Shown: in pieces, positions 339 through 19,073 of the stretch | Position numbering within the stretch: the first letter of the stretch is position 1 | Layout of the letters: the number at the start of each line of letters is the position of its first letter | NCBI GenBank assembly: GCA_017882455.1 | Contig: JADGPL010000013.1 | Span: forward strand, 25,116-89,115 | DNA length: 64,000 nucleotides | Reading direction: 5' to 3' | Source of the DNA: Solirubrobacteraceae bacterium | GTDB taxonomy: Bacteria; Actinomycetota; Thermoleophilia; Solirubrobacterales; Solirubrobacteraceae | Position numbers and translations under genes: made by a program | Notes under the pieces: model-generated | Databases searched by the model: none | Told to the model about the DNA's origin: nothing | The model's input: the letters and a program-made list of their open reading frames with translations, nothing else

Positions 339-596
339 CGACGGGTTGTTCACGCCGCTTTCGACGACGCTCTCTTCAGAGCTGTTGCTACCTGTTGCCA
401 ATGGCCCTCCGATGACGTGAGAACGCCCCGGATTCCGGGGCGCGAAGTCCACGGCCGGGGCGGGTTTCGTATGTCCCAAATCATAGCAGGCGAGGGGTTC
501 TCCCACCGCCGTAAAACACCCCTAAATCCCTGCAAACTGCCGGGAAACTGGGTGCTCACGAGGACGCGGCGGGTGGGCGTGGGAGCGGGGAGTCCG

Positions 597-2002: not shown

Positions 2003-2009
2003 GCCACCG

Positions 2010-3122: not shown

Positions 3123-3276
3123 GACGGTGCCATGAGAAAGGAATAAGGGTTAGTAGGGGCTGTGAAGGTGTGCATTCGGCGTGGACAGGGCAGGTTGCCC
3201 TGGTGTAGCGGTGGGCGTCCCTGTGGATAGGTCAAGGGAAGTCTCTCAGGCACGGCGGTCGGGCGCGTGGGATGGG
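3123..3276. promoter_or_regulatory. dnaA-dnaN spacer with two DnaA-box-like 9-mers and an AT-richer stretch; candidate oriC segment
   Basis: tgtggatag at 3222-3230 is the reverse complement of CTATCCACA (8/9 to TTATCCACA). cgtggacag at 3180-3188 is the reverse complement of CTGTCCACG (7/9 to TTGTCCACA). A locally AT-richer run gagaaaggaataagggttagtagg lies at about 3133-3158. Confidence 0.35.
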
Positions 3277-4662: not shown

Positions 4663-4906
4663 GGCAGCGCTGTCCAGCTCCTCTCCCAGAGGCAGATGAC
4701 GAGAACTATTCGAAGGAGGACCCGCTGGGGGCCCGGTCGGGCGACTATATCCAACGACCTGACGGGGTCCACGTGGGTGCTCGCATTTGGCGGGAAAAAT
4801 CAGCGGGGGCCGATCGGTCCTATACTTCGGGTCCGATCGCCGCCGGGTTGCGGTGGGATATCTGCGGCCGCTGAAGGAGTACGGCGGTCATTGGAGAACA
4901 GAGACC
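4663..4906. promoter_or_regulatory. Divergent dnaA / rpmH spacer; point where gene orientation switches
   Basis: Genes to the left are all on the minus strand and genes to the right (up to parB) are all on the plus strand. Only weak DnaA-box-like words are present (6/9 matches, e.g. ctgtccag, tatatccaa, ggtccacg). Confidence 0.3.
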
Positions 4907-5041
4907 ATGAAGCGCACCTACCAGCCAAAGAAGCGCAAGCGTGCCCGCGCACACGGGTTTCGCGCTCGCATGAGCTCGCGAGCCGGCCGGCTCACGCTCA
5001 AGCGCCGTCGCGACAAGGGCCGCAAGCGCCTCTCCGCCTAG
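4907..5041 (+). CDS. rpmH: 50S ribosomal protein L34
   Basis: Internal ATG of ORF 4787..5041 gives the 44-aa [44 protein letters not shown]. Confidence 0.97.
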
Positions 5042-5079
5042 GTCGGAGGGGTGAGCCCGCGCTCGTGGACGGACGCGCG

Positions 5080-5493
5080 ATGAGGCCGCGGACTCCGGGG
5101 CGCGGTGGTCGCCTGTCACGCAGCGCGGAGTTCGAGCGCGTCTATCGCCATGGCCGATCGACGGCCAACCGGCACCTGGTCCTGTACGCGTTTCCCAACG
5201 AGTCTTCCCGTCGGCCGCGACTGGGGCTGTCGGTATCGCGGAAGGTCGGCGGAGCGGTCGAGCGCAACCGCGTCAAGCGCCTGCTGCGCGAGGCGTTTGC
5301 GGGAGTCGAGCGTGACATTGCGGCCGGACACGACATCGTCGTGGTGGCCCGTCCGTCCGCGCGCGAGCTGGCCGAGCGCGACGGTCTGGCGGGTGTGGAG
5401 GGGTCGTTGGGAGAGCTGCTCGTCAAGGCCGGCCTGTGCACGGGCGGGGGCGCGCCGCCGCCGGAGGAGCCCGGTGAGCGCCTCCCGACCTGA
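5080..5493 (+). CDS. rnpA: Ribonuclease P protein component
   Basis: Tail of ORF 4444..5493 from ATG 5080. FERVYRHGRS..NRHLVLY...RLGLSVSRKVGGAVERNRVKRLLREAF. Located downstream of rpmH. Confidence 0.9.
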   Translation: MRPRTPGRGGRLSRSAEFERVYRHGRSTANRHLVLYAFPNESSRRPRLGLSVSRKVGGAVERNRVKRLLREAFAGVERDIAAGHDIVVVARPSARELAERDGLAGVEGSLGELLVKAGLCTGGGAPPPEEPGERLPT

Positions 5494-5782
5494 GCAAGAC
5501 GCGAGCCCGAGCGCTCATCGTCTATCGCGCGCCACGCGCATGTTCGTGAGCGCCCCGATCACCGTCTATCAGCACCTGGTATCGCCGGCGATACCAAGGC
5601 GTTGCAAGTACGAGCCCACGTGCTCGCGCTACGCGGTCGACGCGATCCGGGAGTACGGCATACTTAGGGGCCTGGTGCTCGCGGGGTGGCGGCTGCTCAG
5701 GTGCAATCCGTGGAGCCACGGCGGATACGATCCGGTTGAGGCTCAGCGAGTGTTCAGCGTGGACTCCGGCGCCGGCGGCTGA
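5474..5782 (+). CDS. yidD: Membrane protein insertion efficiency factor YidD
   Basis: Tail of ORF 5105..5782: ITVYQHLVSP..PRRCKYEPTCSRYAVDAIREYG...WRLLRCNPWSHGGYDPV. GTG 5474 has GGAGGAG a few nt upstream and overlaps the rnpA stop. ATG 5540 is an alternative start. Confidence 0.85.
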   Translation: MSASRPEQDASPSAHRLSRATRMFVSAPITVYQHLVSPAIPRRCKYEPTCSRYAVDAIREYGILRGLVLAGWRLLRCNPWSHGGYDPVEAQRVFSVDSGAGG

Positions 5783-5878
5783 GCCGCGCCCGGTGAGCCA
5801 TCCCCCGGCGGCCAAACCCGCATCTCACCAGCCCACAGTCAACTGACGACGACCGAGACCACCGAGAACCCTTAGAGC

Positions 5879-6853
5879 ATGCCCATCCTCGCCAATGTGA
5901 TCCAGGACGCGTTCTCGCCGCTGATCAGCCTCTTCGAACACGTCATGGTGTTCATCCACGCGCACCTCGTGGGGGGCAGTTGGGGCCTGGCGATAGTGGG
6001 GCTGACCGTGTTGATCAGGGCGGTCCTCGTGCCCCTGACCTTCAAGCAACTGAAGTCGATGCAGGAGATGCAGCGCCTCGCGCCCCAGATCAATGCGCTG
6101 AAAGAGAAGTACAAAGAGGACAAACAGCGCCAGCAACAGGAGCTGATGAAGTTCTACCAGGAGAACAAGATCAACCCGCTGGCCTCGTGTCTGCCGCTGC
6201 TCATGCAGTTGCCCGTGTTCATCTCGCTCTTCTACATGTTGCGGACCGATCTGAAGAAGCACATCTGCGGGTCGAGTCTCGTGTCGCATTACAACACGCT
6301 GCATCCCACCGCCACCGTCAAGAGCATCGCGCACCTGCCCGCGAAATACCTCGAAAAGACGAGTTGCGACCTGGTTCAGCCGCACTCGGCGAAGTTCCTG
6401 TTCCTTCCGGACATCACAAACAAGGCGACGGGCGTGGCCCTGATCGTCCTGATCGTCCTGTACGTGGGCTCGCAGCTGGCCTCCACGCTGATCGCCACCG
6501 CCACCGCCGATCCCAATCAGCGCCGTCTGATGCTGCTCCTGCCCCTGGTGTTCGTTGTCATCCTCTATCGGTATCCCGCCGGCCTGCTCGTGTACTGGAT
6601 CACCACGAACCTGTGGACGATCGGCCAGCAGTCGCTGATCCGCCGCCGCATGCCGCCGCCGCCGAAGGTGGAGACGCCGGCGGGGGCGGCTAACGGCAAA
6701 CCCACACGCTCGCTGCGCGAGGCGTTCGCCAGCGCCGCCGCCGGCGCTGGGGGCCGCGCTGCCCCGGCTGCCGCACCGAGCCCCAGCGCCCCGGCCGCAA
6801 CGCCACCCCGACCCCCGCGGAAGAAGAAGAAGCGTTCGGGCAGGCGGCGATGA
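5879..6853 (+). CDS. yidC: Membrane protein insertase YidC (short, Gram-positive type)
   Basis: 324 aa. LIRAVLVPLTFKQLKSMQEMQRLAPQINALKEKYKEDKQRQQQELMKFYQENKINPLASCLPLLMQLPVFISLFY, with a basic C-terminal tail RKKKKRSGRRR. Confidence 0.95.
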   Translation: MPILANVIQDAFSPLISLFEHVMVFIHAHLVGGSWGLAIVGLTVLIRAVLVPLTFKQLKSMQEMQRLAPQINALKEKYKEDKQRQQQELMKFYQENKINPLASCLPLLMQLPVFISLFYMLRTDLKKHICGSSLVSHYNTLHPTATVKSIAHLPAKYLEKTSCDLVQPHSAKFLFLPDITNKATGVALIVLIVLYVGSQLASTLIATATADPNQRRLMLLLPLVFVVILYRYPAGLLVYWITTNLWTIGQQSLIRRRMPPPPKVETPAGAANGKPTRSLREAFASAAAGAGGRAAPAAAPSPSAPAATPPRPPRKKKKRSGRRR

Positions 6854-7344
6854 CCGACCAGGGAGACGAGGGTGAGGGCATCGCGGCGGAGGACCTCGAC
6901 CCCGCAGAGGCGCTGGAGGAGTTGCTGGAGGAGATCGTCGAGAGCCTGGGTCTGGGGGGCGAGGTCGAGGTCGAGGAAGCCGATGGGATTCTGACGGGGC
7001 GACTCGAGGGCGAGGACGTGGGCCTGTTCATCGGGCGCCACGGCCAGACGATCGACGCGGTGCAGCACCTGGCCCAACGGATCGTCTTCCCGGAAGGACC
7101 GTCGTCGGTGAGGGTCGTGATCGACGCGAACGGTTATCGACAGCGCCGCGCCGAGGCGCTGTGTGCCGAGGCGGACGATGCCGCGGACGATGCCGTGAGC
7201 TCCGGCAAACCTGTCGAGCTGGACCCACTTCCTCCATTCGAGCGGCGGATCGTCCACGAGTATCTGCGCGAGCGCGGCGACGTCGATACCCACAGCGAGG
7301 GCAACGAGCCCGAGCGGTATCTCGTCATTTCTCCGCTGCCATAG
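6850..7344 (+). CDS. jag: Jag/KhpB-like RNA-binding protein (KH + R3H domains)
   Basis: 164 aa. KH-like GLFIGRHGQTIDAVQHL and R3H-like PFERRIVHEYL. Overlaps the yidC stop by 4 nt, in conserved yidC-jag synteny. Confidence 0.85.
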   Translation: MTDQGDEGEGIAAEDLDPAEALEELLEEIVESLGLGGEVEVEEADGILTGRLEGEDVGLFIGRHGQTIDAVQHLAQRIVFPEGPSSVRVVIDANGYRQRRAEALCAEADDAADDAVSSGKPVELDPLPPFERRIVHEYLRERGDVDTHSEGNEPERYLVISPLP

Positions 7345-7352
7345 GCAGCGGG

Positions 7353-7381
7353 CGTTTCACGTTTTTCTTGACGGTGAAACA
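7353..7381. repeat. Split parS-like inverted repeat (cGTTTCAC - 13 nt - GTGAAACA)
   Basis: Half-sites at 7353-7360 and 7374-7381 would form CGTTTCACGTGAAACA (15/16 to parS TGTTTCACGTGAAACA) if the 13 nt gtttttcttgacg at 7361-7373 were removed. It lies between the jag stop and the LAGLIDADG-like ORF start. Confidence 0.4.
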
Positions 7382-7390
7382 ATCCCAGAC

Positions 7391-7753
7391 ATGTCCGCGC
7401 CGACGCAAACACCGCTGAGCGACGTCGAGCGGGGTCTCGTAGCGGGGATCCTCATCGGCGAGGGCAGTTTTGGTGGGGATGGGAAGTATCCGCAGATAAC
7501 GCTGCGGATGCACACGCGCCACGAGACCTTGTTCCACTGGCTGCAGGCCCGCTTCCCGCGCTCGCGGCTGTATGGGCCCTACGACCACGGCGGTCGCAGC
7601 TACTACCAATGGATGGCCCGCGGCCCCGTGCTGGCGGAGGACGTCCTGCCCGTGGTGGAGTCGGTCCTCAGCGAGGAGGTTGACGCCCACGTGCTGGGAA
7701 GGATCCACGAGATGCGGGCGAAGTACGCTGGATTCTTCGCGCAATATGGATGA
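7391..7753 (+). CDS. Small free-standing LAGLIDADG-like (homing-endonuclease fold) protein
   Basis: 120 aa. ERGLVAGILIGEGSFGG aligns to the LAGLIDADG motif with E at the catalytic acidic position. It is followed by an alternating pattern compatible with the core beta-sheet (PQITLRMH..ETLFHWLQARFP..SYYQWMARG..VLAEDVLPVVE). Its last 8 nt overlap the rsmG start. Confidence 0.55.
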   Translation: MSAPTQTPLSDVERGLVAGILIGEGSFGGDGKYPQITLRMHTRHETLFHWLQARFPRSRLYGPYDHGGRSYYQWMARGPVLAEDVLPVVESVLSEEVDAHVLGRIHEMRAKYAGFFAQYG

Positions 7754-8450
7754 TCTGCTGCCTGAGATCGACGTGGGGGAGCCGGCGTCTGGATTGACCT
7801 TGCAGCAACGACGCAGGCTGGCGACGCTGCTGGAGGTCATCGCCGCGGATGCGCATTCGCCGACGACGATCCGGGAGCCCGAGCGGGCTGCGCGCCTGCA
7901 CCTGGCAGATTCCCTGGCCGCCCTGGAGCTGGGGCAGGTGCGCAACGCCAGCCGGATCGCCGATCTCGGCAGCGGCGCGGGCTTCCCGGGCCTGCCGCTG
8001 GCGGTGGCGCTGCCGACGGCTGAGGTCAGCCTGGTGGAGAGCCAGCGGCGCAAGTGCGAGTTCCTCGAGAGGATCCGGGCGGCCGCCGGCGTCGAGAATG
8101 CCGAGGTGGTGTGTGCCCGGGCGGAGGATTGGGACGACGGTGCCGCCCGGAACGACCTGGTCGTCGCGCGCGCCCTCGCGCCACAGGCGGTCGTGCTCGA
8201 GTACGCGGCGCCGCTGCTGCGTATCGGCGGCTCGCTGGTCGACTGGCGCGGCAGGCGCTCATCGGAGGAGGAGGCGGCAGGCGAGCGGGCTGCCGAGATA
8301 TTGGGCATGCAGCGCACCGAGGTGCTGCGGGTGAGCTCCGTCGCGGGTGTGACCGATCACCACCTCCACGTCTTCGAGAAGCTCCGGGAGACCCCGCCGC
8401 GATTTCCGAGACGGGCAGGCATGGCACGCAAGCGGCCCCTCGCCGTGTGA
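7746..8450 (+). CDS. rsmG: 16S rRNA (guanine527-N7)-methyltransferase RsmG (GidB)
   Basis: Tail of ORF 7572..8450 from ATG 7746. SAM motif IADLGSGAGFPGLPLAVA, then VESQRRKCEFL and GGSLVDWRG. Sits in the jag-rsmG-parA-parB block. Confidence 0.9.
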   Translation: MDDLLPEIDVGEPASGLTLQQRRRLATLLEVIAADAHSPTTIREPERAARLHLADSLAALELGQVRNASRIADLGSGAGFPGLPLAVALPTAEVSLVESQRRKCEFLERIRAAAGVENAEVVCARAEDWDDGAARNDLVVARALAPQAVVLEYAAPLLRIGGSLVDWRGRRSSEEEAAGERAAEILGMQRTEVLRVSSVAGVTDHHLHVFEKLRETPPRFPRRAGMARKRPLAV

Positions 8451-8524
8451 GCGCTGCGGCGGCGGGGTGCCGTGCGGAGCTTCAACCGGCGTCGGGGTGC
8501 TGCTGAACGGCGATCGGCGCTAGC

Positions 8525-9292
8525 TTGCAGCGCATGGGCACCATCTATGCGGTCGCCAACCAGAAGGGCGGCGTTGGTAAGACGACGACGGCGGTCAACG
8601 TGGCCGCGTGCATCGCCGAGGCTGGGTACACGACGCTGCTCGTGGATGCCGACCCTCAGGCCAACGCCACCGTGGGGCTCGGAATCCCGCGCACCCAGTC
8701 GCCGGGGCTCTACGAGGTTCTCACCGGTGAGGCGAGCGCCGAGGAGGCGCTCACGGACTCGGCGGTGGAGGGGCTGCGCGCCCTGCCGGCGGGGGCGGGC
8801 CTGGCGGGGGCCAACGTCGAGCTCCCGCGGATGGAGGGCTTCGAGTATCGCCTGCGCGACTGCCTGGCGCCGCTGAAGGACAGCTTCCAGTACATCCTGT
8901 TGGACTGCCCGCCATCGCTCGGCCCGTTGACAGTCTGTGCGCTGGTGGCCGCCGACCGTGTGATCGTGCCGGTGCAGACCGAGTACTTCGCGCTCGAGGG
9001 CCTCGCCGGGCTGCTCGAGACCCTGGCGCTGGTCCAGCGAGAGCTCAACCCCCGCCTCACGGTCGCGGGGATGCTGTTGACGATGCACGACAGCCGCACG
9101 CGTCTCGGCCAGGACGTGGAGCGCGAGGTGCGGGCACACTTTCCCGACCTGGTCTTCGACACCGTGATACCCCGCAACGTCCGAGTCGGGGAGGCTCCCA
9201 GCTACGGTCTGCCGGTGACCCACCACGACCCTCACAGCGCCGGTGCAGAGGCCTACTTCGAGCTCGCCAAGGAGGTGGCTGCGCGTGGCTAA
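8525..9292 (+). CDS. parA: Chromosome partitioning ATPase ParA/Soj
   Basis: 255 aa. Deviant Walker A NQKGGVGKTTTAVN, then LLVDADPQANAT. ATG 8534 is an alternative start. Confidence 0.95.
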   Translation: MQRMGTIYAVANQKGGVGKTTTAVNVAACIAEAGYTTLLVDADPQANATVGLGIPRTQSPGLYEVLTGEASAEEALTDSAVEGLRALPAGAGLAGANVELPRMEGFEYRLRDCLAPLKDSFQYILLDCPPSLGPLTVCALVAADRVIVPVQTEYFALEGLAGLLETLALVQRELNPRLTVAGMLLTMHDSRTRLGQDVEREVRAHFPDLVFDTVIPRNVRVGEAPSYGLPVTHHDPHSAGAEAYFELAKEVAARG

Positions 9293-10193
9293 GCCAAGAC
9301 CCGGGATGGGCAGGGGACTCGATGCGATCCTGTCGGTATCCGCTCGCGGAGGCACCGAGGCGCGCGAGGAGGAGTTGCGGGATCTGCCGGTTGAGCTGAT
9401 CTCGCCCAGCCCCCATCAGCCGCGCCGGGCGTTCGACGAGCAGGCGCTCGCGGCGCTCGCGGGGTCGCTGGGGGAGCGCGGCGTGCTGCAGCCGGTGCTC
9501 GTCCGTCCCAGGCCTGGCGGGAAGTACGAGCTCGTGGCCGGTGAGCGGCGCTGGCGAGCCGCGCGCCTGGCGGGCCTCGAGACCATCCCGGCCCTGGTCC
9601 GCGATCGCGAGGACGCCGCCGCCTTGGAGGTGGCCCTGATCGAGAACATGGCTCGCGAGGACCTCAACCCGATCGAGGAGGCGCGCGCCTGCGCGGCGCT
9701 CGTCGAGGAGCTGGGCCTGACGCGTGAGGAGGTGGGCCTGCGCGTGGGCCGCAGTCGCGTGGCCGTCAGCAACCTGGTGAGGCTCCTGGACCTGCCGGAT
9801 GCGGTGATCGAGCTGCTCGAGCAGGGTGCCCTCAGCGAGGGGCACGGACGCGCGCTGCTGCTGGCCGAGGATCACGAGGCCCGCCGCGCCCTCGCCCGCT
9901 CGGCCGTCGAGCAGGGATGGTCCGTTCGGGTCGTGGAGGAGCGCGCCCGCGACAGCAACGCCGCGCCGGCCCCGCGCAAGGTTGGATCGCGCAGCGGCGC
10001 CGCTGCTCGCCGCTTGCACCCCGACCAGGAGCAGGCCGCCCGCGAGATCGCCGAGACGCTCTCGGGCGCGCTGGGGGCGGAGGTCCAGGTGAAGCCCACG
10101 CGCGACGGGCGCTACCGCGCCGAGCTGTCGCTCTCGAGCCTCCAGGAGGCCGTGGAGCTCGCACGTCGCGTGGGCCCCCGCGCGGTGGCCTGA
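9285..10193 (+). CDS. parB: Chromosome partitioning protein ParB/Spo0J
   Basis: Tail of ORF 9243..10193. [10 protein letters not shown], ParB box [50 protein letters not shown] 9285 overlaps the parA stop; ATG 9306 is an alternative start. Confidence 0.93.
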
Positions 10194-10247
10194 GCCGGGG
10201 TCGGCGATAAGATGGCGGGCGAAGACGAGCGACGGGGCAGCGGGCGA

Positions 10248-11477
10248 TCACTGATGCGAACGCAACTGCGAGAGCTGGCCCCGTACCGTCGCGTAAAGCT
10301 CGCGCGGTAGACGGGCTGTCTGCTTGCGCGCAGCAGACATCGCCGCCGGGGCGCGATCAAGAATGTCGTTGATAGTGGCCGCCGCGCGCTCGCGTGACAT
10401 GCCCCAGCTCACCGCCTCATTCGCAATCCGCTCGGCTGTGACTCGGTCGGTGCGTTGCACGGTGTCGATACACATCGCCAGTCGGTTGTCGCCGTAGTGC
10501 AGGGTGCACATGAGGTCGTATAGCGGCGTTAGCGTCAACGCACCCGACGCGTGGTGCAGCAACGAGAAGTTCTTGGCGTGGGCGTCGCCGTTGCCAATCA
10601 AGACATTCAACGTCACGGCCTGCAAGAGCCGCTCCAAGGAGTTGGTAGCGGCCACTGACTGCAGGATGCCGGCGATGCGCTGTAGCGAGGGGCCACCGTC
10701 CTCCTCGTACTTGGTCTCGGGGGACACACCCGTCGCTTGGCAGAAGTCCTCCTGGTGGATGCGCTCGACGGCGCCGTCGGGGCTAACGGTGCGGTCGAAC
10801 CGCCCGACGACGATCAACTTGCGTTTCGCGATCTCGGTCGTCTCGACGGCGGCAACGGCGAGGCCGAGGTTCCGCGCGATCCTCATGCAAAACGCCTCGT
10901 TCTCCACCGTCTTCGGGTAGGCGGCGATCTCGGGCTTGAGGATGTGCGTCGAAGGCGTGCCGTCCACGGGTCGGCCCCACTTGCCATCCGGCATGCGCGT
11001 CAGCAGAAGCTTCTCCTGCACGCCCGCTAGCGAGATGCGCACCCTGCCGCCTGCACCCAGCGGTGCGCTCCGCAGGTTGCCCACGAGAGTCGCAACGTCA
11101 TCCGGAGTCAGCGCTTCGGCGGTGACCGTGGTGGGCGTCGGGGGCGGAGGCTCGTCGGCCGGTTGAATCACGACTGCGCCTGCGCAGTCGCGCCCGAGCT
11201 CGCGGATTAGGCCGTATGTGTCGTCCGCGCGCACGCTGACGTCTCGGGCAATCGACTTGCGCGACTCGCCCTCGGGAAGGAGGCCATCGATGAACGGCCG
11301 CACGACACCCTGCGTGTATCGACGCTCACTCAACGGCAGCGACAAAGACAGCAGCGGTGTGCCCAGCTCGTAGCGACCCAGGGCATCCTCCGTGTAGACC
11401 AGGCGCGGTCGACCCCGGTCGCGGTCGATGGTGGCGACCCGGTCGCCGTACAACCAGACGGCTAGCTCGTCGGCCAC
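10248..11477 (-). CDS. hipA: Type II toxin HipA-family serine/threonine kinase
   Basis: 409 aa with a GTG start. P-loop-like RISLAGVQEKLLL and the catalytic motif LIGNGDAHAKNFSLL. The start overlaps the hipB stop by 1 nt (TAGTG). Confidence 0.9.
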   Translation of the reverse strand: MADELAVWLYGDRVATIDRDRGRPRLVYTEDALGRYELGTPLLSLSLPLSERRYTQGVVRPFIDGLLPEGESRKSIARDVSVRADDTYGLIRELGRDCAGAVVIQPADEPPPPTPTTVTAEALTPDDVATLVGNLRSAPLGAGGRVRISLAGVQEKLLLTRMPDGKWGRPVDGTPSTHILKPEIAAYPKTVENEAFCMRIARNLGLAVAAVETTEIAKRKLIVVGRFDRTVSPDGAVERIHQEDFCQATGVSPETKYEEDGGPSLQRIAGILQSVAATNSLERLLQAVTLNVLIGNGDAHAKNFSLLHHASGALTLTPLYDLMCTLHYGDNRLAMCIDTVQRTDRVTAERIANEAVSWGMSRERAAATINDILDRAPAAMSAARKQTARLPRELYATVRGQLSQLRSHQ

Positions 11478-11731
11478 TACCAGTCAGCCTCATCGAGCGT
11501 CATGCGGACCCCAAGCTGTCTCAGGACGCGGAGAATCCGCTTGAGCTGCTCGGTCTCCTTGCCGCTCTCAAGTTCGGATAGGTAGCTGCGCTGCAGCCCA
11601 GCCATCTCGGCGAGTTGAGCCTGGGTCAACCCAGCAGCGGTTCGATAGTGGCGGATAGCATCTCCCAGCGAGGCGGGCGAATAGACCCGAAAGGGTCCCT
11701 TCGAGCCTTTGTGCGTGTCTTCTGTCGGCAT
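11477..11731 (-). CDS. hipB: HipB-like XRE-family HTH antitoxin
   Basis: 84 aa from the internal ATG 11731 of ORF 11477..11977. LGDAIRHYRTAAGLTQAQLAEMAGLQRSYLSELESGK is a classical Cro/C1 HTH. Located directly upstream of hipA. Confidence 0.85.
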   Translation of the reverse strand: MPTEDTHKGSKGPFRVYSPASLGDAIRHYRTAAGLTQAQLAEMAGLQRSYLSELESGKETEQLKRILRVLRQLGVRMTLDEADW

Positions 11732-11850
11732 AATCCGACATTGTAGCAATGTCAGGATACCCCGACAAGCATGCCATGTCGAGATATCACGACATACGGC
11801 CTGTGTCTGGATATCCCGACGCCTCTCGGGTGTGTCGCGGGATCCGGACC
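11723..11850. promoter_or_regulatory. Array of five about-18-bp palindromic operator-like sites at 27-28 bp spacing (putative HipB operators)
   Basis: TGTCGGCATAATCCGACA at 11723, TGTCAGGATACCCCGACA at 11750, TGTCGAGATATCACGACA at 11777, TGTCTGGATATCCCGACG at 11805, TGTCGCGGGATCCGGACC at 11833. The first covers the hipB start codon. Confidence 0.65.
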
Positions 11851-12086
11851 GCTGAACCCAACGCGGCCACTCTGCGTGAGCAGCGAGCCGCCTGCTTCGT
11901 GCGGGTGAGCCGCCACGGTCTGTCCGAGCACGTCCGGTCGCTTCGCTGGCGTGCGCGTGCCGTCGGTAAGATGGCACGCAATGCGTCGCGCAACAGAGCC
12001 TAAGCGCGAGCCACGTGCCATGGATGTGCCATTTTCGGGCGCACGTAGCTTCTCGTTTTCCGGCAAAGTGCGCGGTTGCAGGTAAA

Positions 12087-12160
<74 letters not shown>

Positions 12161-12198
12161 TCATCGCAGTCGGGCCAAAGTCCTCGCCATTCGTGCAG

Positions 12199-13698
12199 CT
12201 ACGCCATATGCGCCGTGGCATCTAGCGTGACCGCCGTCCCATCGCCGTACAAACGCCGATGCAACTCCACGGCCGTCTCCTCCGTAAGCCCGGCGATGAG
12301 GTCTACGACGACGCGCGCGCGACGGGCTGGTTCGTTTCCACCCTCGTCTAGGGTGCGCTTCGCGCCGGGCGGGAATATACGTCGATCGCCGTCTTTGCCC
12401 TCCCCACTTGCTGCGTAGTAGGCCTCGAACAGCTCCCGAACGACGCGCTGTTGCCCGTGCTGTACCACGGCAAGGCCTGGCCTCCGGATCACATACACGC
12501 GCACTAGCATCTTGAGCGCCTCGACCTCCCGGACGATGTCCGGATTGACAAAAACGCGCATCTTGCCGGAGGCGACCACGTCCTCCACTCTGAAGGCGCT
12601 CATGTAACGCGTGATCAGGTCGGAGTCAAAGCGCCGCATCAGTCGGCGATCATCCCTTCCGTGGCGATAGCCGCCAGTCGGAGCGAATGCAGCCGCCACA
12701 GTGCCTATAGCGTCGAGCAGTTGGTCCACGGTATATCGGGGCCAAGACGTGAGGTCTGCCTGCTTTGCGTCCTCGAGGAGCTCGTGCAGGCGCTTGAACT
12801 CATCATCGGTCGGCTCGCCGAGGCGATGGAGCGGAATCAGGCCAGCGCGGAAGAAGTCATCAGTATCGTGGACTGCATAGGTGAGGTCGTCTGCCCACTC
12901 CATGATGAGCGCCTCCAGACTGCGCTCGGGCAAATGTTCGTCGTCATCGACCCGTCCGCTGAACGCCCGAGCAAAAGCATAAGCTTCGTCGTCCTCCTTG
13001 TAAAAGCCCCACTTGCGCTCGCGTGCTCGAGCCTGGAGTGGGTCTTGGCGCCACCAGCGCCACGGGTACTTCAAGATGCCGTCCAGTGTCTGACGGGTGA
13101 GATTGAGGCCGCTACCGCCCGACCGCTGCGCGAGCCACGTCACGATCCGAAAGCTCTGGGCATTCCCCTCGAAGACGCCATCGTCCTGGATGTAGTCATT
13201 AGCGATCTCGTTGAGTTCGGCCTCAGCGATGTGGCCGAACGGAGGATGCCCGAGGTCGTGGGCGAGACAGCTTGCCTCAACCGCTCCCGGGTCGAGCGAC
13301 CGCACGGTTGCCTGTGCCCGTCCCGATATCCCGTCTTGCGCGGCGATCTCCAGGAGTCGCTCGGCGTTGCGTCGCCCGACTTGGGCCACCTTGAGGGAGT
13401 GGCTTAGGCGGTTATGGAACGCGTGCCCGGCCTCGGGTGCCGTAACTTGCGTAACGTAAGCGAGTCGCCGGAAGGCTGAGCAGTAGAGGACCCGATCGCG
13501 ATCACGCTCTCCGGGACCTCGATAGTCCTGTCCCCATTTGTCGCGGGCGTCGGATGAGGCTGTACTTTGGCCTGCGCGTTTCTGAAGCTCGCCTATAGCC
13601 TCGTCACTGCGCGGAGTGAGGAGTTCGTCCACACACGGCAGATTAGGCGCGAGGGCGGATGCGCAAGTCCTCGCCTTGTTCCAACCTTCCGTCGTCAA
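12199..13698 (-). CDS. dGTPase-family HD-domain dNTP triphosphohydrolase
   Basis: Up to 499 aa. HD motifs HNRLSHSLKVAQVGRR, CLAHDLGHPPFGH and EWADDLTYAVHDTDD. The likely real start is GTG 13632, 11 nt after the upstream ORF's stop. The first 22 codons of the track ORF overlap that ORF. Confidence 0.85.
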   Translation of the reverse strand: MTTEGWNKARTCASALAPNLPCVDELLTPRSDEAIGELQKRAGQSTASSDARDKWGQDYRGPGERDRDRVLYCSAFRRLAYVTQVTAPEAGHAFHNRLSHSLKVAQVGRRNAERLLEIAAQDGISGRAQATVRSLDPGAVEASCLAHDLGHPPFGHIAEAELNEIANDYIQDDGVFEGNAQSFRIVTWLAQRSGGSGLNLTRQTLDGILKYPWRWWRQDPLQARARERKWGFYKEDDEAYAFARAFSGRVDDDEHLPERSLEALIMEWADDLTYAVHDTDDFFRAGLIPLHRLGEPTDDEFKRLHELLEDAKQADLTSWPRYTVDQLLDAIGTVAAAFAPTGGYRHGRDDRRLMRRFDSDLITRYMSAFRVEDVVASGKMRVFVNPDIVREVEALKMLVRVYVIRRPGLAVVQHGQQRVVRELFEAYYAASGEGKDGDRRIFPPGAKRTLDEGGNEPARRARVVVDLIAGLTEETAVELHRRLYGDGTAVTLDATAHMA

Positions 13699-13885
13699 GG
13701 AGGCTTCTCAAGGCAAGCCCCATCACCGCGCTGCTCCAGCCATTGCGTGCCCGCGTTAGCAGATCACGCGCGGTCCACCCCTCTTCTGGCTGCTCGCCGG
13801 CGAGCGAAAGCAGCGCTTGCCCCGCTGCGGCGATCTCCTCGCTGATCACTTGGTCTGTGGTGTCGATCGCCATCGTCATCTCCAC
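13643..13885 (-). CDS. Small hypothetical protein, winged-helix-like, upstream of the dGTPase
   Basis: 80 aa. ...GWTARDLLTRARNGWSSAVMGLALRSLLDDGRLEQGEDLRIRP resembles a wHTH recognition helix plus wing. Same strand as the dGTPase and nearly abutting it. Confidence 0.5.
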   Translation of the reverse strand: MEMTMAIDTTDQVISEEIAAAGQALLSLAGEQPEEGWTARDLLTRARNGWSSAVMGLALRSLLDDGRLEQGEDLRIRPRA

Positions 13886-14065
13886 GTCGGTCGGGACCTT
13901 AGGTCATTTCTATACCCCGCGCCGGCCACAACACGCACCGACCGGGCGTTCGTTCTACTTCTTGGTGGACTACGAAATTATGCTTTGGCGTTCGGACGTC
14001 CCTAAACTGAGTTTCATGGGGGCAAAATCTCCAACCTGGGTTGGCAGTCAATATGGTGTCCCACC

Positions 14066-14698
14066 ATGATCTCCGGGACGGCGGAAGACTCGGGATGGAC
14101 TGCATCCGAGTTGCGTGTAGCGATTGGCCGGGCTCTGCTCGCGAGCGACGTGACGATGACGGCGGCGGACCTAGCAGCCGTCGTATCTTCGCACCAGTCG
14201 AACATCAAGAAGGAAGCAGAGCGGATGGCTCTCGCCGGGCTGATCCAGCGCGGTGCGCGCCGCCAGGCAAGCCCAAGTAAGCGCGGCCCGAAGCCCGAAG
14301 GCTTCGGCATGTCGCCGGCACAGCGCAAGCGCGCTTCTCGAGACTTGACCGCATACGTACCACCAGGCGTTCTCCGGCAAGGGCAGGAGGTAGTCAGGGC
14401 GTCTGCCGGTCCTGGGCATGCCGTCGACCTTCTTGGGGCTCTAACCGATGCCGAAGCGACGGTCAAGGCGGCCTGGGTCGCACTCGTCGGGGATGATCTG
14501 TTCGTTGCGTACAGTGGGCCGAGTGCCGCCAAGCCCGCTGTCGAGTTGCAGGCAGTCCTTGAAGCGGCCAACGTTCCGAGTCGGAGGGCAACGGTTGCGC
14601 GCGTCGCACCGGCCCACGAGTGGGTGCGGGACGGGCGTGAGGTCGTACGTGCGGTCGATCGCACGCAGGCCTCGCGCCGTAAGCCCCCTGTCGTGTAG
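14066..14698 (+). CDS. Hypothetical protein, N-terminal wHTH-like domain plus unknown C-terminal domain
   Basis: 210 aa, divergent from the wHTH/dGTPase pair. GWTASELRVAIGRALLASDVTMTAADLAAVVSSHQSNIKKEAERMALAGLIQRG looks MarR/wHTH-like. I recognise no family for the C-terminal half. Confidence 0.5.
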   Translation: MISGTAEDSGWTASELRVAIGRALLASDVTMTAADLAAVVSSHQSNIKKEAERMALAGLIQRGARRQASPSKRGPKPEGFGMSPAQRKRASRDLTAYVPPGVLRQGQEVVRASAGPGHAVDLLGALTDAEATVKAAWVALVGDDLFVAYSGPSAAKPAVELQAVLEAANVPSRRATVARVAPAHEWVRDGREVVRAVDRTQASRRKPPVV

Positions 14699-14730
14699 TC
14701 GTCGCTATTCGGCACGTCTGCGCCACGGCC

Positions 14731-14752
14731 TGATAAGGAAGAGGTCCCGGGA
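14731..14752 (+). repeat. Partial direct repeat of tRNA-Ile (anticodon loop to variable region); relic att site
   Basis: ctgataaggaagaggtccc (19/19) is identical to tRNA positions 12118-12136. One mismatch follows, then gg. Confidence 0.7.
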
Positions 14753-14775
14753 GAGGTGAGGCTTATGGTCGTGGC

Positions 14776-15042
14776 TTACGCCGTGGCGGCCGCACGCCGC
14801 TGAGCGTGCGCGTACAGCGTCTCGGGCGCTATGTCTGCCCCGTTGGGCCAGACGATCGTGCCGGCCTCAGGGTCTGCGGTGAGGCGAGCGAAGTAGGAGC
14901 GCTCGCGTAGCGGCTCGAACACGCCGCCGTACTCGAGCAGATAGGAGAGGTCAACGTCGGCTGTCGTGCCGTCATCGAAGCGAACGTGGACAGCGTAGCC
15001 GTCTATCGCCTGAGCGTCGGCGAGAAGGGGCGTGCTGCGCAT
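14776..15042 (-). CDS. DUF2442-family protein
   Basis: 88 aa. AVHVRFDDGTTADVDLSYLLEYGGVFEPLRERSYFARLTADPEAGTIVWPNGADIAPETLY matches the DUF2442 pattern. Paired with a DUF4160 gene immediately upstream. Confidence 0.7.
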   Translation of the reverse strand: MRSTPLLADAQAIDGYAVHVRFDDGTTADVDLSYLLEYGGVFEPLRERSYFARLTADPEAGTIVWPNGADIAPETLYAHAQRRAAATA

Positions 15043-15061
15043 AGCAGGAATGTTAGAGCGC

Positions 15062-15331
15062 TCAGCGCAGCGGGTCGACTGGCAGCAGCGGCTCGTTGGC
15101 GCGCGCTCGCGACCAGTTTTCGCGCAGCTCGGCTTGGTGCGCTTGCCCCCACTCGGTCACGAGGCGCCGACCACGAGGTGGCAACTCCCCGGCGAGGATC
15201 GCCAGGCTCTCGATGTCGATCGTGGCCTCGTCCTCGCCATAGGTGGCGTGGAAGTGCGGCCGACCGCGGTGGTGAACCTCGTCGTAGTACATCCAGATCA
15301 CGATCCCGTAGAACGCGCTGATCCTCGGCAT
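15062..15331 (-). CDS. DUF4160-family protein
   Basis: 89 aa. MPRISAFYGIVIWMYYDEVHHRGRPHFHATYGEDEATIDIESL is the characteristic DUF4160 N-terminus. Confidence 0.75.
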   Translation of the reverse strand: MPRISAFYGIVIWMYYDEVHHRGRPHFHATYGEDEATIDIESLAILAGELPPRGRRLVTEWGQAHQAELRENWSRARANEPLLPVDPLR

Positions 15332-15579
15332 GGGCTACCCGCTCCAATGAGCAGCCGTCGTTGCGGCCGCGACGGCCGCGAGCGCTGAGTCCGAGCGATC
15401 TCGATGCCACATGGCGAACGCAGGCTATCCGGGCGTCCGGGGCAGCAGGCACGTTCCGCTGCCCAAACCCAACCGAATCGGACCCAATCCCGCCGTATCC
15501 GCGCGGTACACCGGCCACGAGAATCTCTCGCAAACACTGGCGATCAGGCGCTTTCAGCGCCTCTGCATCGAGTCATGAC

Positions 15580-15616
15580 AAGGAAGAGGTCCCAGGTTCG
15601 AATCCTGGATCGCCCA
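15580..15616 (+). repeat. 37-nt exact direct repeat of the tRNA-Ile 3' half (attR-like)
   Basis: aaggaagaggtcccaggttcgaatcctggatcgccca is identical to 12124-12160. The 5' half of a tRNA is absent, so this is not a gene. Confidence 0.85.
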
Positions 15617-15657
15617 CTCTCGCCCCGCGTTCTGGTGGGCGGCCAGAATATTCGCCG

Positions 15658-17562
15658 TCAGCCGGCCAGCGGCTGCGCGGGCAGCTCAGAGGGCGCGCTC
15701 TGGCCCTGCTTCCAATTCTCCAGGAATGCCGCTGTGTCGGCGGCGTCGAGAGGTCGCGCGAACAGAAAGCCCTGCCCACTGTCGCATAGCTGACCACGCA
15801 GCAGCGAGAGCTCGTGTGCCTGCTCGATCCCCTCGGCCAGCGTCTCGATGGACAGCGCCTTGCCGAGCTGCACGAGCGTGTTGAGGATCGTCTCGCCCTC
15901 CCGGTTGTGCGTCATCTGTGTGATGAAGGACCGGTCGATCTTCAGGGCGTCGACGGGAAAATGCTGCAGGTGCGCCATCGAGGAGTAGCCGGTGCCGAAA
16001 TCGTCGATGGCGATTCGCACCCTGAGCTCCTTGACCGCCTGAAGTCGAGCGGTCGTCGCAACGGTGTCGCGCATCAGCGCCGTCTCGGTGATCTCGATCG
16101 TCAGGGACTCCGGCTCGAGTCCGGACTCGAGCAGGCAGCGGCGCACGTCCTCCACGAAGTCGTCGCTGTCGAGCTGGCGGGCGGAGACATTCACGGCGAT
16201 GCCGATCGGGTGGCCCGCTTCGCGCCAGCGCACGCCCTGGCAACATGCCTCCTGAAGCACCCACCGGCCGATCTCCACGATCAGGCCGGTCTCCTCGAGC
16301 AGCCCGATGAAGTCGTCCGGCTGGACGAGCTCGCGGGTGGGGCTGTCCCAGCGGATCAGGGCCTCCATCCCCGTGGGCGTCATGTCCCGCAGGTTGAAGG
16401 TCGGCTGGTAGACGAGGAAGAACTCATCGTTCTCCAGTGCCATCCGCAGGTCCATCTCGAGCTCCATCCGCGATTGGACGGCCGTCTGCATTCCCGACTC
16501 GAACACGGCGTATCTATGACGCCCATCCCACTTGGCCTGGTACATCGCGATGTCCGCGTCGCGGAGCAGATCGCCGGCTGTCTCGCGCTCACCGGCGGCG
16601 ATCCCGATGCTCGCGGTGACCTTCAGCTGCGGCTGGGCGGAGCTCTCGAGCTTGAACGGCTGATCCAACGCCGCAAGCAGGCGCTCGGCGATGAGCTCGG
16701 GCCCAGAGGCCAGCGAGAGCTCGCTCGCCACCACAACGAACTCGTCACCTCCGAGCCGCCCGACCGCATCGGTCTCCCGGACCACGGCCGTCAGCCTCGA
16801 GGCGACCGATTGCAGGAGCTCGTCGCCGGTCGCGTGGCCGAGAGTGTCGTTGATGGCCTTGAAGTTGTCGAGATCGATGAACAGGGCCGCGAGTGGCGTG
16901 TGATCGCGCCGTGAGCGCATCAGCATCTGCTCGACTCGATCGAGGATGAGCGTGCGATTCGGCAGGCCCGTCAAGGCATCGTGGGTCGCCAGGAATGCGA
17001 GCTCGTGCTGGCGCCGCGACAGCTCCTCGTCGGCCCGTCGCCGCTCGGTCTCAAACGACTCACACATCCGCACCAGCGTCACATTCAGGCTTCGCTGCAG
17101 CATCGCGAGTGCTTGCGAGAGCACGGCCGGGTGGATCTCGAGCTCATGCGCGCACTCGACTAGAACCTCCCCGGCGGCATCGCACCAGCGAAGGCAGCGC
17201 TTGGTGACCTCGTTCAACGGCGCCGCGCGTTGCGAGGCGAGCTGTCCGAAGATCTGCCAGGACTCCTGCCCGACCTCGCGCGCCACGTCGGCCCCCTCTC
17301 CGGACATCCACCGGGCGACCGCCACGGTCGAGACCGTTCCCACCCGCGCGAAACGCTCCTCGACCTGCGCGTCGAGCTCGAATCCGGAGCTCTTCGTGCG
17401 GCGGAGCATCGCCTCGACCACCTGCTCGGTTCGCCCATTCAACGCCCCTCCTAGACGATGAAGGTCATCCGCCTCTCCCATTGACATGGGCGAGAGATCG
17501 GCAGTGCGGCCACCGAGCATAATCGGTGGCCGACTGGGCGCTTGCTGTCTACCAAAGCACAA
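15658..17562 (-). CDS. GGDEF-EAL c-di-GMP turnover protein with an N-terminal helical sensor region
   Basis: 634 aa. HDALTGLPNR, RLGGDEFVVV, EALIRW, DDFGTGYSS. Several in-frame Met within the first about 28 codons are possible starts. Confidence 0.9.
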   Translation of the reverse strand: MCFGRQQAPSRPPIMLGGRTADLSPMSMGEADDLHRLGGALNGRTEQVVEAMLRRTKSSGFELDAQVEERFARVGTVSTVAVARWMSGEGADVAREVGQESWQIFGQLASQRAAPLNEVTKRCLRWCDAAGEVLVECAHELEIHPAVLSQALAMLQRSLNVTLVRMCESFETERRRADEELSRRQHELAFLATHDALTGLPNRTLILDRVEQMLMRSRRDHTPLAALFIDLDNFKAINDTLGHATGDELLQSVASRLTAVVRETDAVGRLGGDEFVVVASELSLASGPELIAERLLAALDQPFKLESSAQPQLKVTASIGIAAGERETAGDLLRDADIAMYQAKWDGRHRYAVFESGMQTAVQSRMELEMDLRMALENDEFFLVYQPTFNLRDMTPTGMEALIRWDSPTRELVQPDDFIGLLEETGLIVEIGRWVLQEACCQGVRWREAGHPIGIAVNVSARQLDSDDFVEDVRRCLLESGLEPESLTIEITETALMRDTVATTARLQAVKELRVRIAIDDFGTGYSSMAHLQHFPVDALKIDRSFITQMTHNREGETILNTLVQLGKALSIETLAEGIEQAHELSLLRGQLCDSGQGFLFARPLDAADTAAFLENWKQGQSAPSELPAQPLAG

Positions 17563-17616
17563 GTGGTGCGAGGATGTGGCTGCGGCCAGCCCCGTTTAGA
17601 TGCCGAGGCCGGGAGC

Positions 17617-18723
17617 TCACACGCCCTCGCGCCGCGCAGGGACCTGCTGGGTGATGCAGTGGATGTTGCCGCCCCCGAGCAGGATCTCGCGAGCGGGGAC
17701 GCCGATCACCTCGCGCTCGGGAAAGCAGCCCCGAAGGATCTCGCCGGCCCGCTCGTCGCAGCGCTCGTCGAGCAGCGGGAAGACGACCCGGGTCGTACCG
17801 AGATAGAAGTTTGCGTAGGACGCCGCCAAGCGATCACCGTCGCGGCGGGGAAGGGTCCCGGCGACCGCGTCGACGCCGCTGGCCTCCTCCGCGGTGATCG
17901 TGATCGGCCCCGGCGAGGGCAGGCGCACGACCTCGATCGATCGGCCGCGGGCATCCCGTGCACGCTGCAGGCGCTCCTCGGCGTCGCGGGAGATCGCGTG
18001 CTGGGGGTCCGACTCGTCCTCCGCGTAGGTCAGCAGGACGACGCCCGGACGGGCGAAGCAGGCGAGGTTGTCCACGTGCCCATCCGTCTCGTCGTTGTAG
18101 ACGCCGCGCCTGAGCCAGATCATCTTCTCCGCGCCGAGGTATTCGAACAGCGCCTGCTCGATCTGCTCGCGGGAGAGATCGGGGTTGCGGTTCGCGTTCA
18201 AGAGGCACTCTTCGGTCGCCATCACGGTGCCCTCGCCGTCCACGTGGATCGAGCCGCCCTCGAGCACGATCGGCGCGCGGTAGCGATCGGCGCCTTCCAC
18301 CTCCAGGACCTTGCGTGCGACACGCTCGTCCCGATCCCAGGGAAAGTAGAGGCCGCCGTCCAGGCCGCCCCATGCGTTGAAGTGCCAGTCGACGCCGCGC
18401 CTGCCGCCACTGCCATCGACCACGAAGCTCGGCCCCATATCGCGTATCCACGCGTCATCCGTGGAGATCTCGACCACGCGAATGGAGGGCGAGAGCACGG
18501 TGCGGCAATGCTCGAACTGCCTGTCGGACACCGCCACCGTCACCGGCTCGGAGAGGTTGATCGCCTCCGCCACCGCGGCGTAGGCCTCCTGCGCGGGCTT
18601 GGCTCCCAGCCGCCAGTTGTCGCTGCGCTCCGGCCACGCGATCCAACAGCCCTGATGCTCCTCGAACTCCCCGGGCATCCGGTAGCCGTCCGCCGCGGGG
18701 GTCGAGGCGAGCGTCGCGCTCAC
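17617..18723 (-). CDS. aguA: Agmatine deiminase
   Basis: Tail of ORF 17617..18873. MPGEFEEHQGCWIAWPER.DNW, DDAWIRDMGP, EGGSIHVDGEGT, DGHVDN, and C-terminal GGGNIHCITQQ with the catalytic Cys. GTG 18723 overlaps the upstream stop (GTGA). ATG 18678 is an alternative start. Confidence 0.88.
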   Translation of the reverse strand: MSATLASTPAADGYRMPGEFEEHQGCWIAWPERSDNWRLGAKPAQEAYAAVAEAINLSEPVTVAVSDRQFEHCRTVLSPSIRVVEISTDDAWIRDMGPSFVVDGSGGRRGVDWHFNAWGGLDGGLYFPWDRDERVARKVLEVEGADRYRAPIVLEGGSIHVDGEGTVMATEECLLNANRNPDLSREQIEQALFEYLGAEKMIWLRRGVYNDETDGHVDNLACFARPGVVLLTYAEDESDPQHAISRDAEERLQRARDARGRSIEVVRLPSPGPITITAEEASGVDAVAGTLPRRDGDRLAASYANFYLGTTRVVFPLLDERCDERAGEILRGCFPEREVIGVPAREILLGGGNIHCITQQVPARREGV

Positions 18724-19073
18724 AGCTGCCCGCCGGCGCTCTGCTGCGTGGCCTTCTGGATTGCCACCGGCGACGTCCGCGGCTGGCGCGGGTGGCTCAT
18801 CCGCCAGAGCATCACCTCGCCAGCGACGAGCGTCAATCCGACGATCCCGAGCAGCGGACCCGTGTATGACCATTCCCTCGGGGCGTTGGGGATCTCCGGC
18901 CAGAGGAACAGCACGACCCCGCCGAGGATGATCACGCTGGGGATCGCGGCTAGGGCCACGACGAGCCTGTCTCCGCCGGGGATCTTGAACGGCCGTGGCC
19001 GGTCGGGGTCCTTGTAGCGGAGGATCGCCACCGCGGGATACGCGTTTCCGCCGAGGGCCACCACGACGAGCAC
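18720..19073 (-). pseudogene. 3' remnant of an APC-family amino-acid/polyamine permease
   Basis: The 117-aa ORF matches only the last two TM helices and the LRYKDPDRPRPFKIPGG motif of APC permeases. An in-frame TGA lies 10 codons upstream, and only about 77 nt remain before the divergent aguB. Confidence 0.55.

Follow-up and report, generated by a model that had tools for sequence, protein, structure and literature searches.

A winged-helix and dGTPase gene pair on a mobile tRNA-Ile islet of Solirubrobacteraceae, a predicted two-gene nucleotide-depletion system

When a gene for a deoxynucleotide-hydrolysing enzyme lies in an islet beside a tRNA gene, does it serve the nucleotide metabolism of its host, the persistence of the islet or the defence of the cell against invading DNA? 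This question is raised by a 64,000-nucleotide stretch of a Solirubrobacteraceae bacterium (assembly GCA_017882455.1, contig JADGPL010000013.1, positions 25,116 to 89,115; hereafter the window), in which the gene for an HD-domain dGTP triphosphohydrolase (dGTPase) is directly preceded by a gene for a small winged-helix (WH) protein. An initial annotation, made from the sequence alone, had proposed that the two constitute a defence module which depletes deoxynucleoside triphosphates (dNTPs). From the comparisons described here, the pair probably represents a known antiviral defence in a new, two-part form, with a predicted function. We assign a probability of roughly one half to the complete model, that of a mobile WH-dGTPase operon in which the WH protein controls a dNTP-depleting defence enzyme. 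The genes of the pair are located as follows.

12199 to 13632, minus strand: dGTPase (dGTP/dNTP triphosphohydrolase), 477 amino acids, GTG start, HD and HD_assoc domains
12199 to 13698, minus strand: maximal extent of the dGTPase open reading frame
13643 to 13873, minus strand: small acidic winged-helix protein, 76 amino acids; the reading frame can be extended to a GTG at 13885 (80 amino acids)

The full dGTPase HD signature recognized in the initial annotation, with the motifs FHNRLSHSLKV, CLAHDLGHPPFGH and EWADDLTYAVHDTDD, is contained in the minus-strand reading frame 12199-13698. The assignment is supported by matches to the Pfam domains HD (e-value: 1.3e-06) and, in the C-terminal part, HD_assoc (PF13286; e-value: 2.5e-15; score: 57.2, cut-off: 22.2), as well as to TIGR01353, the NCBIfam model for the dGTP triphosphohydrolase subfamily (245.5 bits; cut-off: 152.35). 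Both the metal-binding motif (H...HD...D) and the catalytic H-x-x-E dyad are intact. The segments HNRLSHS, AHDLGHPPFGHIAE and AVHDTDD align with those of structurally solved dGTPases and are invariant in an alignment of 38 sequences of the clade, while the HD, the H-x-x-E and the final Asp can be aligned to the defensive enzymes Sp-dGTPase (9P8W) and Vdg (9VWA). The solved structures are roughly equidistant from the window enzyme, the best match being 7LWZ (e-value: 9e-39). The PADLOC dGTPase hidden Markov model (HMM) PDLC02374 aligns over profile positions 26-377 of 395 (300 bits; e-value: 7.4e-90); this is a single-gene model which does not separate defensive from housekeeping enzymes, and PADLOC's own thresholds were not applied. 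On the basis of these motifs and profiles, the substrate is predicted to be dGTP, and perhaps other dNTPs.

A start peptide of the form V/M-D/N-E-x-L-T-P-R, initiated by GTG or ATG, is found 10-16 nt past the stop codon of the small reading frame in all related loci, and in three of them (L003, L010 and L011) an in-frame stop excludes any dGTPase start further upstream. The start of the window enzyme is therefore the GTG at 13632, as had been favoured in the initial annotation, while the length of 478-499 amino acids given there is reduced to 477.

The small reading frame, annotated initially as encoding 80 amino acids, is a real gene under purifying selection (ratio of nonsynonymous to synonymous substitution rates: 0.17-0.31), but a conserved Met across its homologues places the start at the ATG at 13873 and shortens the product to 76 amino acids. 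Homologues in 27 clusters were recovered in one search, and when 1.84 billion representatives were searched exhaustively with a profile, 93 clusters at 50% identity were obtained. Essentially all of these are stand-alone proteins of 66-137 amino acids, the two long matches being matches to short repeats. No family in Pfam, NCBIfam or PADLOC covers the protein. A winged helix had been suspected in its C-terminal half only; the fold is supported but, in the AlphaFold2 model (24-sequence alignment; predicted local distance difference test score, pLDDT: 93.2; predicted template modelling score, pTM: 0.81), it occupies the entire protein, a long N-terminal helix leading into a winged helix of the order H-H-H-beta-beta. 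The best Foldseek matches are two protein-binding winged helices, the cullin WHB domain (template modelling score, TM: 0.84) and the Rpa2 winged helix (TM: 0.79), while those of MarR, GntR and SelB type also appear among the matches; with e-values of about 0.01 at best, no specific winged-helix subfamily can be assigned. The protein is acidic, with a median net charge of -4 and isoelectric point of 4.8 across 28 homologues and an isoelectric point of 4.4 in the window. Its third helix, NGWSSAVMGLALR, is invariant, hydrophobic and rich in small residues, without the polar and basic residues that recognition helices usually have.

The association between the two genes was surveyed by running HMMs of both proteins over every locus retrieved, 136 in total (cited below by their numbers). 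In the clade of the window enzyme, whose dGTPases range from 98% down to 50% identity to that of the window and whose WH proteins range down to 34%, the WH gene lies directly upstream of the dGTPase gene in all sixteen loci that include upstream DNA. It is found beside none of the 42 dGTPases of 41% identity or less, and no WH gene lacking a dGTPase occurs among the 136 loci scanned. Distant WH members were also examined independently. Two of their loci (L137 and L138) end at contig edges and are uninformative. In L140 (1355-3231) a first WH gene is followed by a 444-amino acid dGTPase (43% identical) and a second WH gene, and in L139 (3001-3577), a decayed cassette, the WH gene precedes a 110-amino acid N-terminal remnant of the same dGTPase. 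Furthermore, the pairwise identities of the WH proteins and the dGTPases are correlated (r = 0.91; 78 non-independent pairs). Taken together, the strict adjacency and correlated identities indicate that the WH protein and the dGTPase are a single evolutionary unit. The initial annotation had also stated that a dedicated small partner falls outside the described single-gene dGTPase systems, and the strictness of the pairing supports its view that the partner is a dedicated one. The WH-dGTPase family is small, and its members come from uncultured soil Actinomycetota only.

The stop codon of the WH gene and the dGTPase GTG are separated by 10 nt in the window, and by 10-16 nt across all loci. The 10-nt gap contains no Shine-Dalgarno-like sequence, suggesting coupling by termination and reinitiation, and the dGTPase is thus probably translationally coupled to the WH protein. 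A contig of 867 nt from a soil metatranscriptome (run X8), 93% identical to positions 13275-14141 of the window, covers the 5′ part of the dGTPase gene, the WH gene, the intergenic region and the start of the divergent gene orf210. This provides weak evidence that a related cassette is expressed, as DNA carry-over is possible for a contig that crosses a divergent promoter region.

Several variations on the cassette can be observed. The dGTPase genes of L006 (10001-11411) and L007 (10001-11318) are split over reading frames in tblastn alignments, which could be due to frameshifts in pseudogenes or to errors of assembly; the placement of L006 in a Trueperaceae bin (Deinococcota) points to either inter-phylum transfer or mis-binning. 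A nucleoside 2-deoxyribosyltransferase-like gene (PF05014) adjoins the pair in two unrelated loci (L012, 8377-8865; L139, 2296-2820), and its product could process the deoxyguanosine product or be another nucleotide-directed defence protein. A conserved protein of approximately 160 amino acids, belonging to no Pfam family, is encoded directly upstream of the WH gene in L019 (11847-12326) and L140 (754-1260), the two most divergent pair-bearing loci, which suggests a three-gene variant of the system.

Is the pair, then, a fixed part of the chromosome or an acquired one? The following features bear on this question.

12087 to 12160, plus strand: tRNA-Ile(GAT), identified with ARAGORN; its 3′ 41 nt (12120-12160) are the left attachment-site copy of the islets
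14729 to 14751, plus strand: partial copy of the tRNA-Ile 3′ half, CTGATAAGGAAGAGGTCCCgGG, 22 nt, at the right end of islet A and its junction with islet B
15576 to 15616, plus strand: full-length repeat of the tRNA-Ile 3′ end (40/41 nt), the right attachment-site copy of the tandem array
12161 to 14751: islet A, 2.6 kb, with the dGTPase, WH and orf210 genes
14752 to 15616: islet B, 865 bp, with DUF2442 and DUF4160 cargo

The tRNA-Ile 3′-end copies make up a direct-repeat family, D2, and their significance is revealed by locus L015, from a 340-kb contig, both flanks of which match the window at 98.2% identity. Positions 1-11915 of L015 match window positions 214-12160 and positions 11875-15340 match 15576-19041, and the 41 nt common to both alignments are the tRNA-Ile 3′ end, 12120-12160. 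L015 thus represents an empty site lacking exactly positions 12161-15575 of the window, the cargo of islets A and B. The empty site and the repeats together show that the window harbors two tandem islets, neither of which encodes an integrase, no match to one being present among the five genes of the two. The tRNA-flanked island described in the initial annotation is therefore right in kind but wrong in size, being a 2.6-kb islet with a second one of 0.87 kb. Islet A also has the lower GC content noted there, 63.4% as against 68.9% for the window, and ranks fifth from the bottom among 308 equally sized segments, while its three genes have third-codon-position GC contents (GC3) of 0.70-0.76 as against 0.83-0.89 for the neighbouring genes, a difference also seen in other genomes.

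The same islet A with the same repeats is present in L001, L004 and L034, with L001 sharing the window sequence at the right end only up to 14706. The pair also occurs in larger repeat-bounded islands in L012 (4.6 kb), L019 (8.7 kb) and L007 (10.5 kb). A tyrosine integrase is encoded beside the pair in L019 (Pfam Phage_integrase; e-value: 1.3e-14) and L011 (e-value: 7.7e-26), and in the former the integrase-bearing island with the pair is located at tRNA-Ile. The nucleotide identity of islet A to its counterparts in L001 and L002 (94.7-95.2%) is far above that of the flanking parAB and other core genes (75-77%), a clear signature of recent horizontal transfer.

These observations also bear on whether the enzyme could be a Dgt paralogue of housekeeping type, serving dNTP pool maintenance or replication fidelity, situated near the origin incidentally and taking no part in conflict with mobile elements. 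Among equivalog models, that of the actinobacterial Dgt (NF002829/PRK03007) matches it best, at 242.5 bits over nearly the full length, but this score is far under the cut-off of 385. The dGTPase gene recurs in the vicinity of dnaA and parAB in several genomes, and distant homologues of Sp-dGTPase have been considered possible housekeeping enzymes (Tal et al., bioRxiv 10.1101/2021.04.26.441389). Conserved core synteny with parB and dnaA was, however, rejected as an explanation by a survey anchored on ParB rather than on the dGTPase, in which 80 metagenome loci were collected, 30 of them with at least 3 kb downstream of parB. The conserved feature after parB is tRNA-Ile, found in 28 of these 30 relatives, while the pair is a rare insertion there, present in L019 and L034 only (2/30). 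The apparent dnaA-parAB synteny is an ascertainment bias, as the loci had been retrieved by means of the dGTPase itself, and the recurrent position is explained by site-specific insertion at the tRNA-Ile that follows parB. With the pair missing from the 98%-identical L015 and from 28 of the 30 ParB-anchored relatives, and with its transfer signature and integrase linkage, a housekeeping role appears very improbable. The pair is accessory and mobile. This half of the initial annotation's accessory and defence interpretation thus holds, and neither of the two outcomes named there as contrary to it was obtained: the enzyme differs from the housekeeping Dgt conserved in related genomes, and the small gene is strictly retained next to homologues. 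The comparisons leave the defence half unsupported.

In structure, islet A resembles a cis-mobilizable element (CIME), which is defined by the retention of attL and attR after loss of the integration and transfer genes (ICEberg 2.0, PMC6323972). It is bounded by attL/attR-like repeats of a tRNA 3′ end, has neither integrase nor transfer genes, is accompanied by a tandem second islet and is matched by an empty site in a related strain. It differs in its very small size (2.6 kb), and neither a helper element nor an excised form was observed. The stacking of integrase-less, attachment site-flanked mini-islets of 0.9-2.6 kb at tRNA-Ile beside parAB in Solirubrobacterales constitutes a little-studied route of cargo exchange in uncultured soil Actinomycetota. 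To our knowledge, the 865-bp islet B is among the smallest such cargo units.

What does the WH protein do within the pair? The remainder of islet A is informative in this respect.

13874 to 14065: divergent intergenic region of 192 bp with presumed promoters and operators, from a five-locus alignment
14066 to 14698, plus strand: orf210, putative ligand-responsive regulator with an ArsR/MarR-type winged helix-turn-helix (wHTH) and a C-terminal ferredoxin-like domain

The intergenic region contains blocks conserved in the five-locus alignment, including GGTGnnnCACCA and CATAATTTCGT. A promoter scan of the region returned weak consensus matches only, a terminator scan was uninformative and an inverted-repeat scan upstream of the WH gene identified no clear palindromic operator. 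The product of orf210, for which only fifteen homologues are detectable, several of them on contigs equal in length to contigs bearing the pair, is modelled by AlphaFold2 (pLDDT: 85) as a wHTH followed by a ferredoxin-like alpha/beta domain, with Foldseek matches to AbfR2, CadC, MarR and Lrp/AsnC-type regulators and a weak match to HTH_20. It was also considered as a hidden recombinase, a possibility rejected because the model is laid out like Lrp/AsnC or ArsR regulators and because other islets hold unrelated small HTH proteins in its stead. Many, though not all, islets carry orf210: it is replaced by an HTH_17 protein in L034, by unrelated proteins of 111-117 amino acids in L013 and L006 and by the protein of approximately 160 amino acids in L019 and L140, and is absent from the islets of L008 and L014. 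The model and matches suggest that orf210 probably encodes a replaceable, ligand-responsive transcriptional regulator of the operon, which would leave the WH protein free for another role.

The WH protein could alternatively be a DNA-binding autorepressor of the operon, with the dGTPase acting alone, defensively or otherwise, without a protein partner. Bacterial proteins bind DNA through a winged helix more commonly than through any other fold, and the MarR, GntR and SelB types among the Foldseek matches fit such a role, as does the position of the WH gene, autoregulators being common as first genes of operons; the islets without orf210 (L008 and L014) otherwise have no obvious regulator. The negative charge and low isoelectric point (4.4-4.8), the hydrophobic third helix and the lack of a clear operator argue against it, and the WH protein remains tied to one enzyme clade even where WH identity falls to 30%, a closer bond than exchangeable regulators usually show, whereas the divergent regulator is indeed swapped. 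We therefore consider an autorepressor unlikely. The charge, the third helix, the protein-binding fold matches, the separate wHTH regulator in the islet and the fidelity to one enzyme clade while that regulator changes favour instead the WH protein as a putative protein partner of the enzyme, either a protein-level regulator or an antitoxin-like inhibitor.

The genes on either side of the islets allow a further explanation to be weighed. The window, which spans the replication-origin region, belongs to a chromosome of Solirubrobacteraceae (Thermoleophilia, Actinomycetota). Metagenome-assembled genomes of the same family are its closest relatives in the databases, and 100% of the sampled words of the region are present in a permafrost metagenome (run X1). 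Its relevant genes are as follows.

7572 to 8450, plus strand: rsmG
8525 to 9292, plus strand: parA
9243 to 10193, plus strand: parB
10248 to 11477, minus strand: hipA
11477 to 11977, minus strand: hipB-type HTH gene
14776 to 15042 and 15062 to 15331, minus strand: DUF2442 and DUF4160 genes, a DhiA/DhiT-like toxin-antitoxin pair by Pfam and NCBIfam
15658 to 17562, minus strand: GGDEF-EAL gene

The neighbours of the WH-dGTPase pair in the window are thus toxin-antitoxin pairs, that of islet B matching the DhiT model with an e-value of 1e-21, and genes of toxin-antitoxin or defence type occupy the same sites elsewhere, with MNT/HEPN genes in L012 and PIN and GmrSD genes in L014. As such, the pair itself could be an addiction module that stabilizes the islet, with the dGTPase as toxin and the WH protein as labile antitoxin, and no dedicated antiviral role. 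Its layout is that of a type II toxin-antitoxin system, the upstream gene being small and its product acidic, and the larger effector gene following after 10 nt. The small partner is tightly coupled to the large one, as in the hipBA pair 0.2 kb away, and the WH-dGTPase pair shares an integration hotspot with hipBA and the DUF4160/DUF2442 pair. An integrase-less islet would gain from post-segregational stabilization, and the dGTPase of the Clover system is toxic when unrestrained (PMC12265719). Near-identical L015, however, has lost or never gained the islets, and any addiction is therefore not absolute. Many toxin-antitoxin systems are also abortive-infection defences, such that this explanation overlaps mechanistically with that of a WH-controlled defence enzyme. 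We know of no toxin-antitoxin family with a dGTPase toxin or with this WH protein. As with the autorepressor, we regard a purely stabilizing role as having a low probability.

Additional observations concern the sites themselves. The hipA and hipB genes (10248-11977) occupy the gap from parB to tRNA-Ile in the window and in near-identical L015 alone. In most relatives this gap measures 76-210 nt, and L002 harbors a different HipA (36% identity, opposite strand) there; the gap looks like a second insertion hotspot. The clearest defence-type neighbourhood of the pair is found in L014 (9098-11333), where the genes that come after it encode a PIN domain and GmrSD_N (DUF262), the latter characteristic of type IV restriction. 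At 31001-32000 (GC: 0.592; AT skew: +0.245), the kilobase with the lowest GC content in the window lies within a 732-amino acid reading frame (30873-33071) of reduced GC3 (0.76), which may be an acquired gene.

A mechanism can be proposed in which the WH protein (76 amino acids) and the HD-domain dGTPase (477 amino acids) would form a two-gene operon that integrative elements carry as an intact unit, in the window on a CIME-like islet at tRNA-Ile next to parAB and the origin region. Transcription would probably be set separately by the divergent orf210, where present, while translational coupling would supply the WH protein in fixed proportion to the enzyme. The dGTPase would hydrolyse dGTP, and perhaps other dNTPs, to the deoxynucleoside and triphosphate. 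The acidic WH protein would most likely bind the enzyme and hold it inactive in an antitoxin-like manner, or else tune it or act as a sensor, so that its effect on the enzyme may be inhibiting or activating. A phage or other invading element that disturbs this control would cause the enzyme to drain the dNTP pool, and replication of the invader would be blocked.

A number of findings weigh against a defence role, or against the WH protein as a protein partner. The enzyme falls short of both curated NCBIfam anti-phage models, antiphage_dGTPase NF041026 (228.7; cut-off: 400) and NF003701 (189.9; cut-off: 383), and, judged from a partial phmmer alignment to 9P8W (e-value: 1.8e-30) in which residues 30-193 only align well and the C-terminal half is barely alignable, it is clearly well below 45% identity to Sp-dGTPase and so outside the corresponding clade. 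Among Sp-dGTPase homologues of at least 45% identity, 53% are located next to defence genes, while for more distant homologues this proportion is approximately 10% (bioRxiv 10.1101/2021.04.26.441389). No restriction-modification or other canonical defence system adjoins the pair in the window, and no WH-HD fusion, which would prove that the two are physically linked, was found among the 93 clusters of the exhaustive profile search. IMG/VR viral contigs hold no close relative of the pair, a profile scan returning dGTPases of 41% identity or less only, all without a WH gene. In addition, acidic wHTH proteins that bind DNA exist, and the charge taken alone is compatible with a repressor. Defence by dNTP depletion is, as such, plausible but unproven. 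The disagreement between profiles also calls for caution in annotation, as PADLOC-type HMMs would call a dGTPase system where the curated anti-phage models reject the enzyme.

Among the known systems with which the pair can be compared, stand-alone dGTPases such as Sp-dGTPase protect Escherichia coli from phage by depleting dGTP (bioRxiv 10.1101/2021.04.26.441389), with structures available for the enzyme of Shewanella putrefaciens CN-32 (Sp-dGTPase; PDB 9P8W; PMC12265719) and for the Vibrio enzyme Vdg (PDB 9VWA; PMC13519002). The window enzyme shares with these the HD-domain dNTP triphosphohydrolase fold, the intact metal and catalytic motifs and a location in accessory DNA. In contrast, they are single-gene systems of Proteobacteria, whereas the window enzyme is always accompanied by a dedicated 76-amino acid winged-helix gene, scores below the anti-phage cut-offs and aligns well with Sp-dGTPase in its N-terminal HD region alone. 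The enzyme type itself is known, and the new part is a predicted nucleotide-depleting dGTPase in an obligate two-gene cassette on miniature tRNA-targeting islets. Within the limited collection of literature searched, no dGTPase paired with a small winged-helix protein is described, an absence of evidence only.

That a bacterial dGTPase can be turned off through direct binding of a small protein, of approximately 80-85 amino acids, is demonstrated by Gp1.2 of phage T7, which inhibits E. coli Dgt (bioRxiv 10.1101/2021.04.26.441389; complex: PDB 7U65). Gp1.2 is, however, a phage counter-defence protein and is not encoded in a host operon, and the WH protein bears no specific resemblance to it, a Foldseek search against the PDB and viral structures having returned generic winged helices only (e-value of about 0.01 or worse), with Gp1.2 not listed. 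The idea that the WH protein is a self-encoded inhibitor or sensor of the dGTPase, the host-side counterpart of Gp1.2, is offered tentatively, with the odds somewhat against it. If true, loss of the WH protein during infection, or its displacement or capture by a phage component, would release dNTP depletion, and the pair would represent a new two-component nucleotide-depletion defence on miniature tRNA-targeting islets of Actinomycetota.

The closest parallel in organization is Clover, which consists of the dGTPase CloA and the nucleotidyltransferase CloB, the latter producing the inhibitory nucleotide p3diT that restrains toxic CloA (PMC12265719). Both are two-gene dGTPase systems, and the partner in Clover restrains a toxic nucleotide-depleting effector. 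The partner in the window is instead a 76-amino acid non-enzymatic winged-helix protein without a family match, CloA (9p8s-9p8v) is more distant from the window enzyme than Sp-dGTPase, and no Pol-beta-type nucleotidyltransferase belongs to the conserved pair, an NTP_transf_2/HEPN pair occurring in L012 only. How nucleotide-depleting defence enzymes are controlled before infection has yet to be settled; how defensive dNTPases are regulated has been described as unknown, with Clover solving one case by means of a nucleotide signal (PMC12265719). A dGTPase clade that is never found without its dedicated small WH protein points to a second, protein-based solution, and the WH-dGTPase pair provides a compact and testable two-gene cassette of 1.7 kb.

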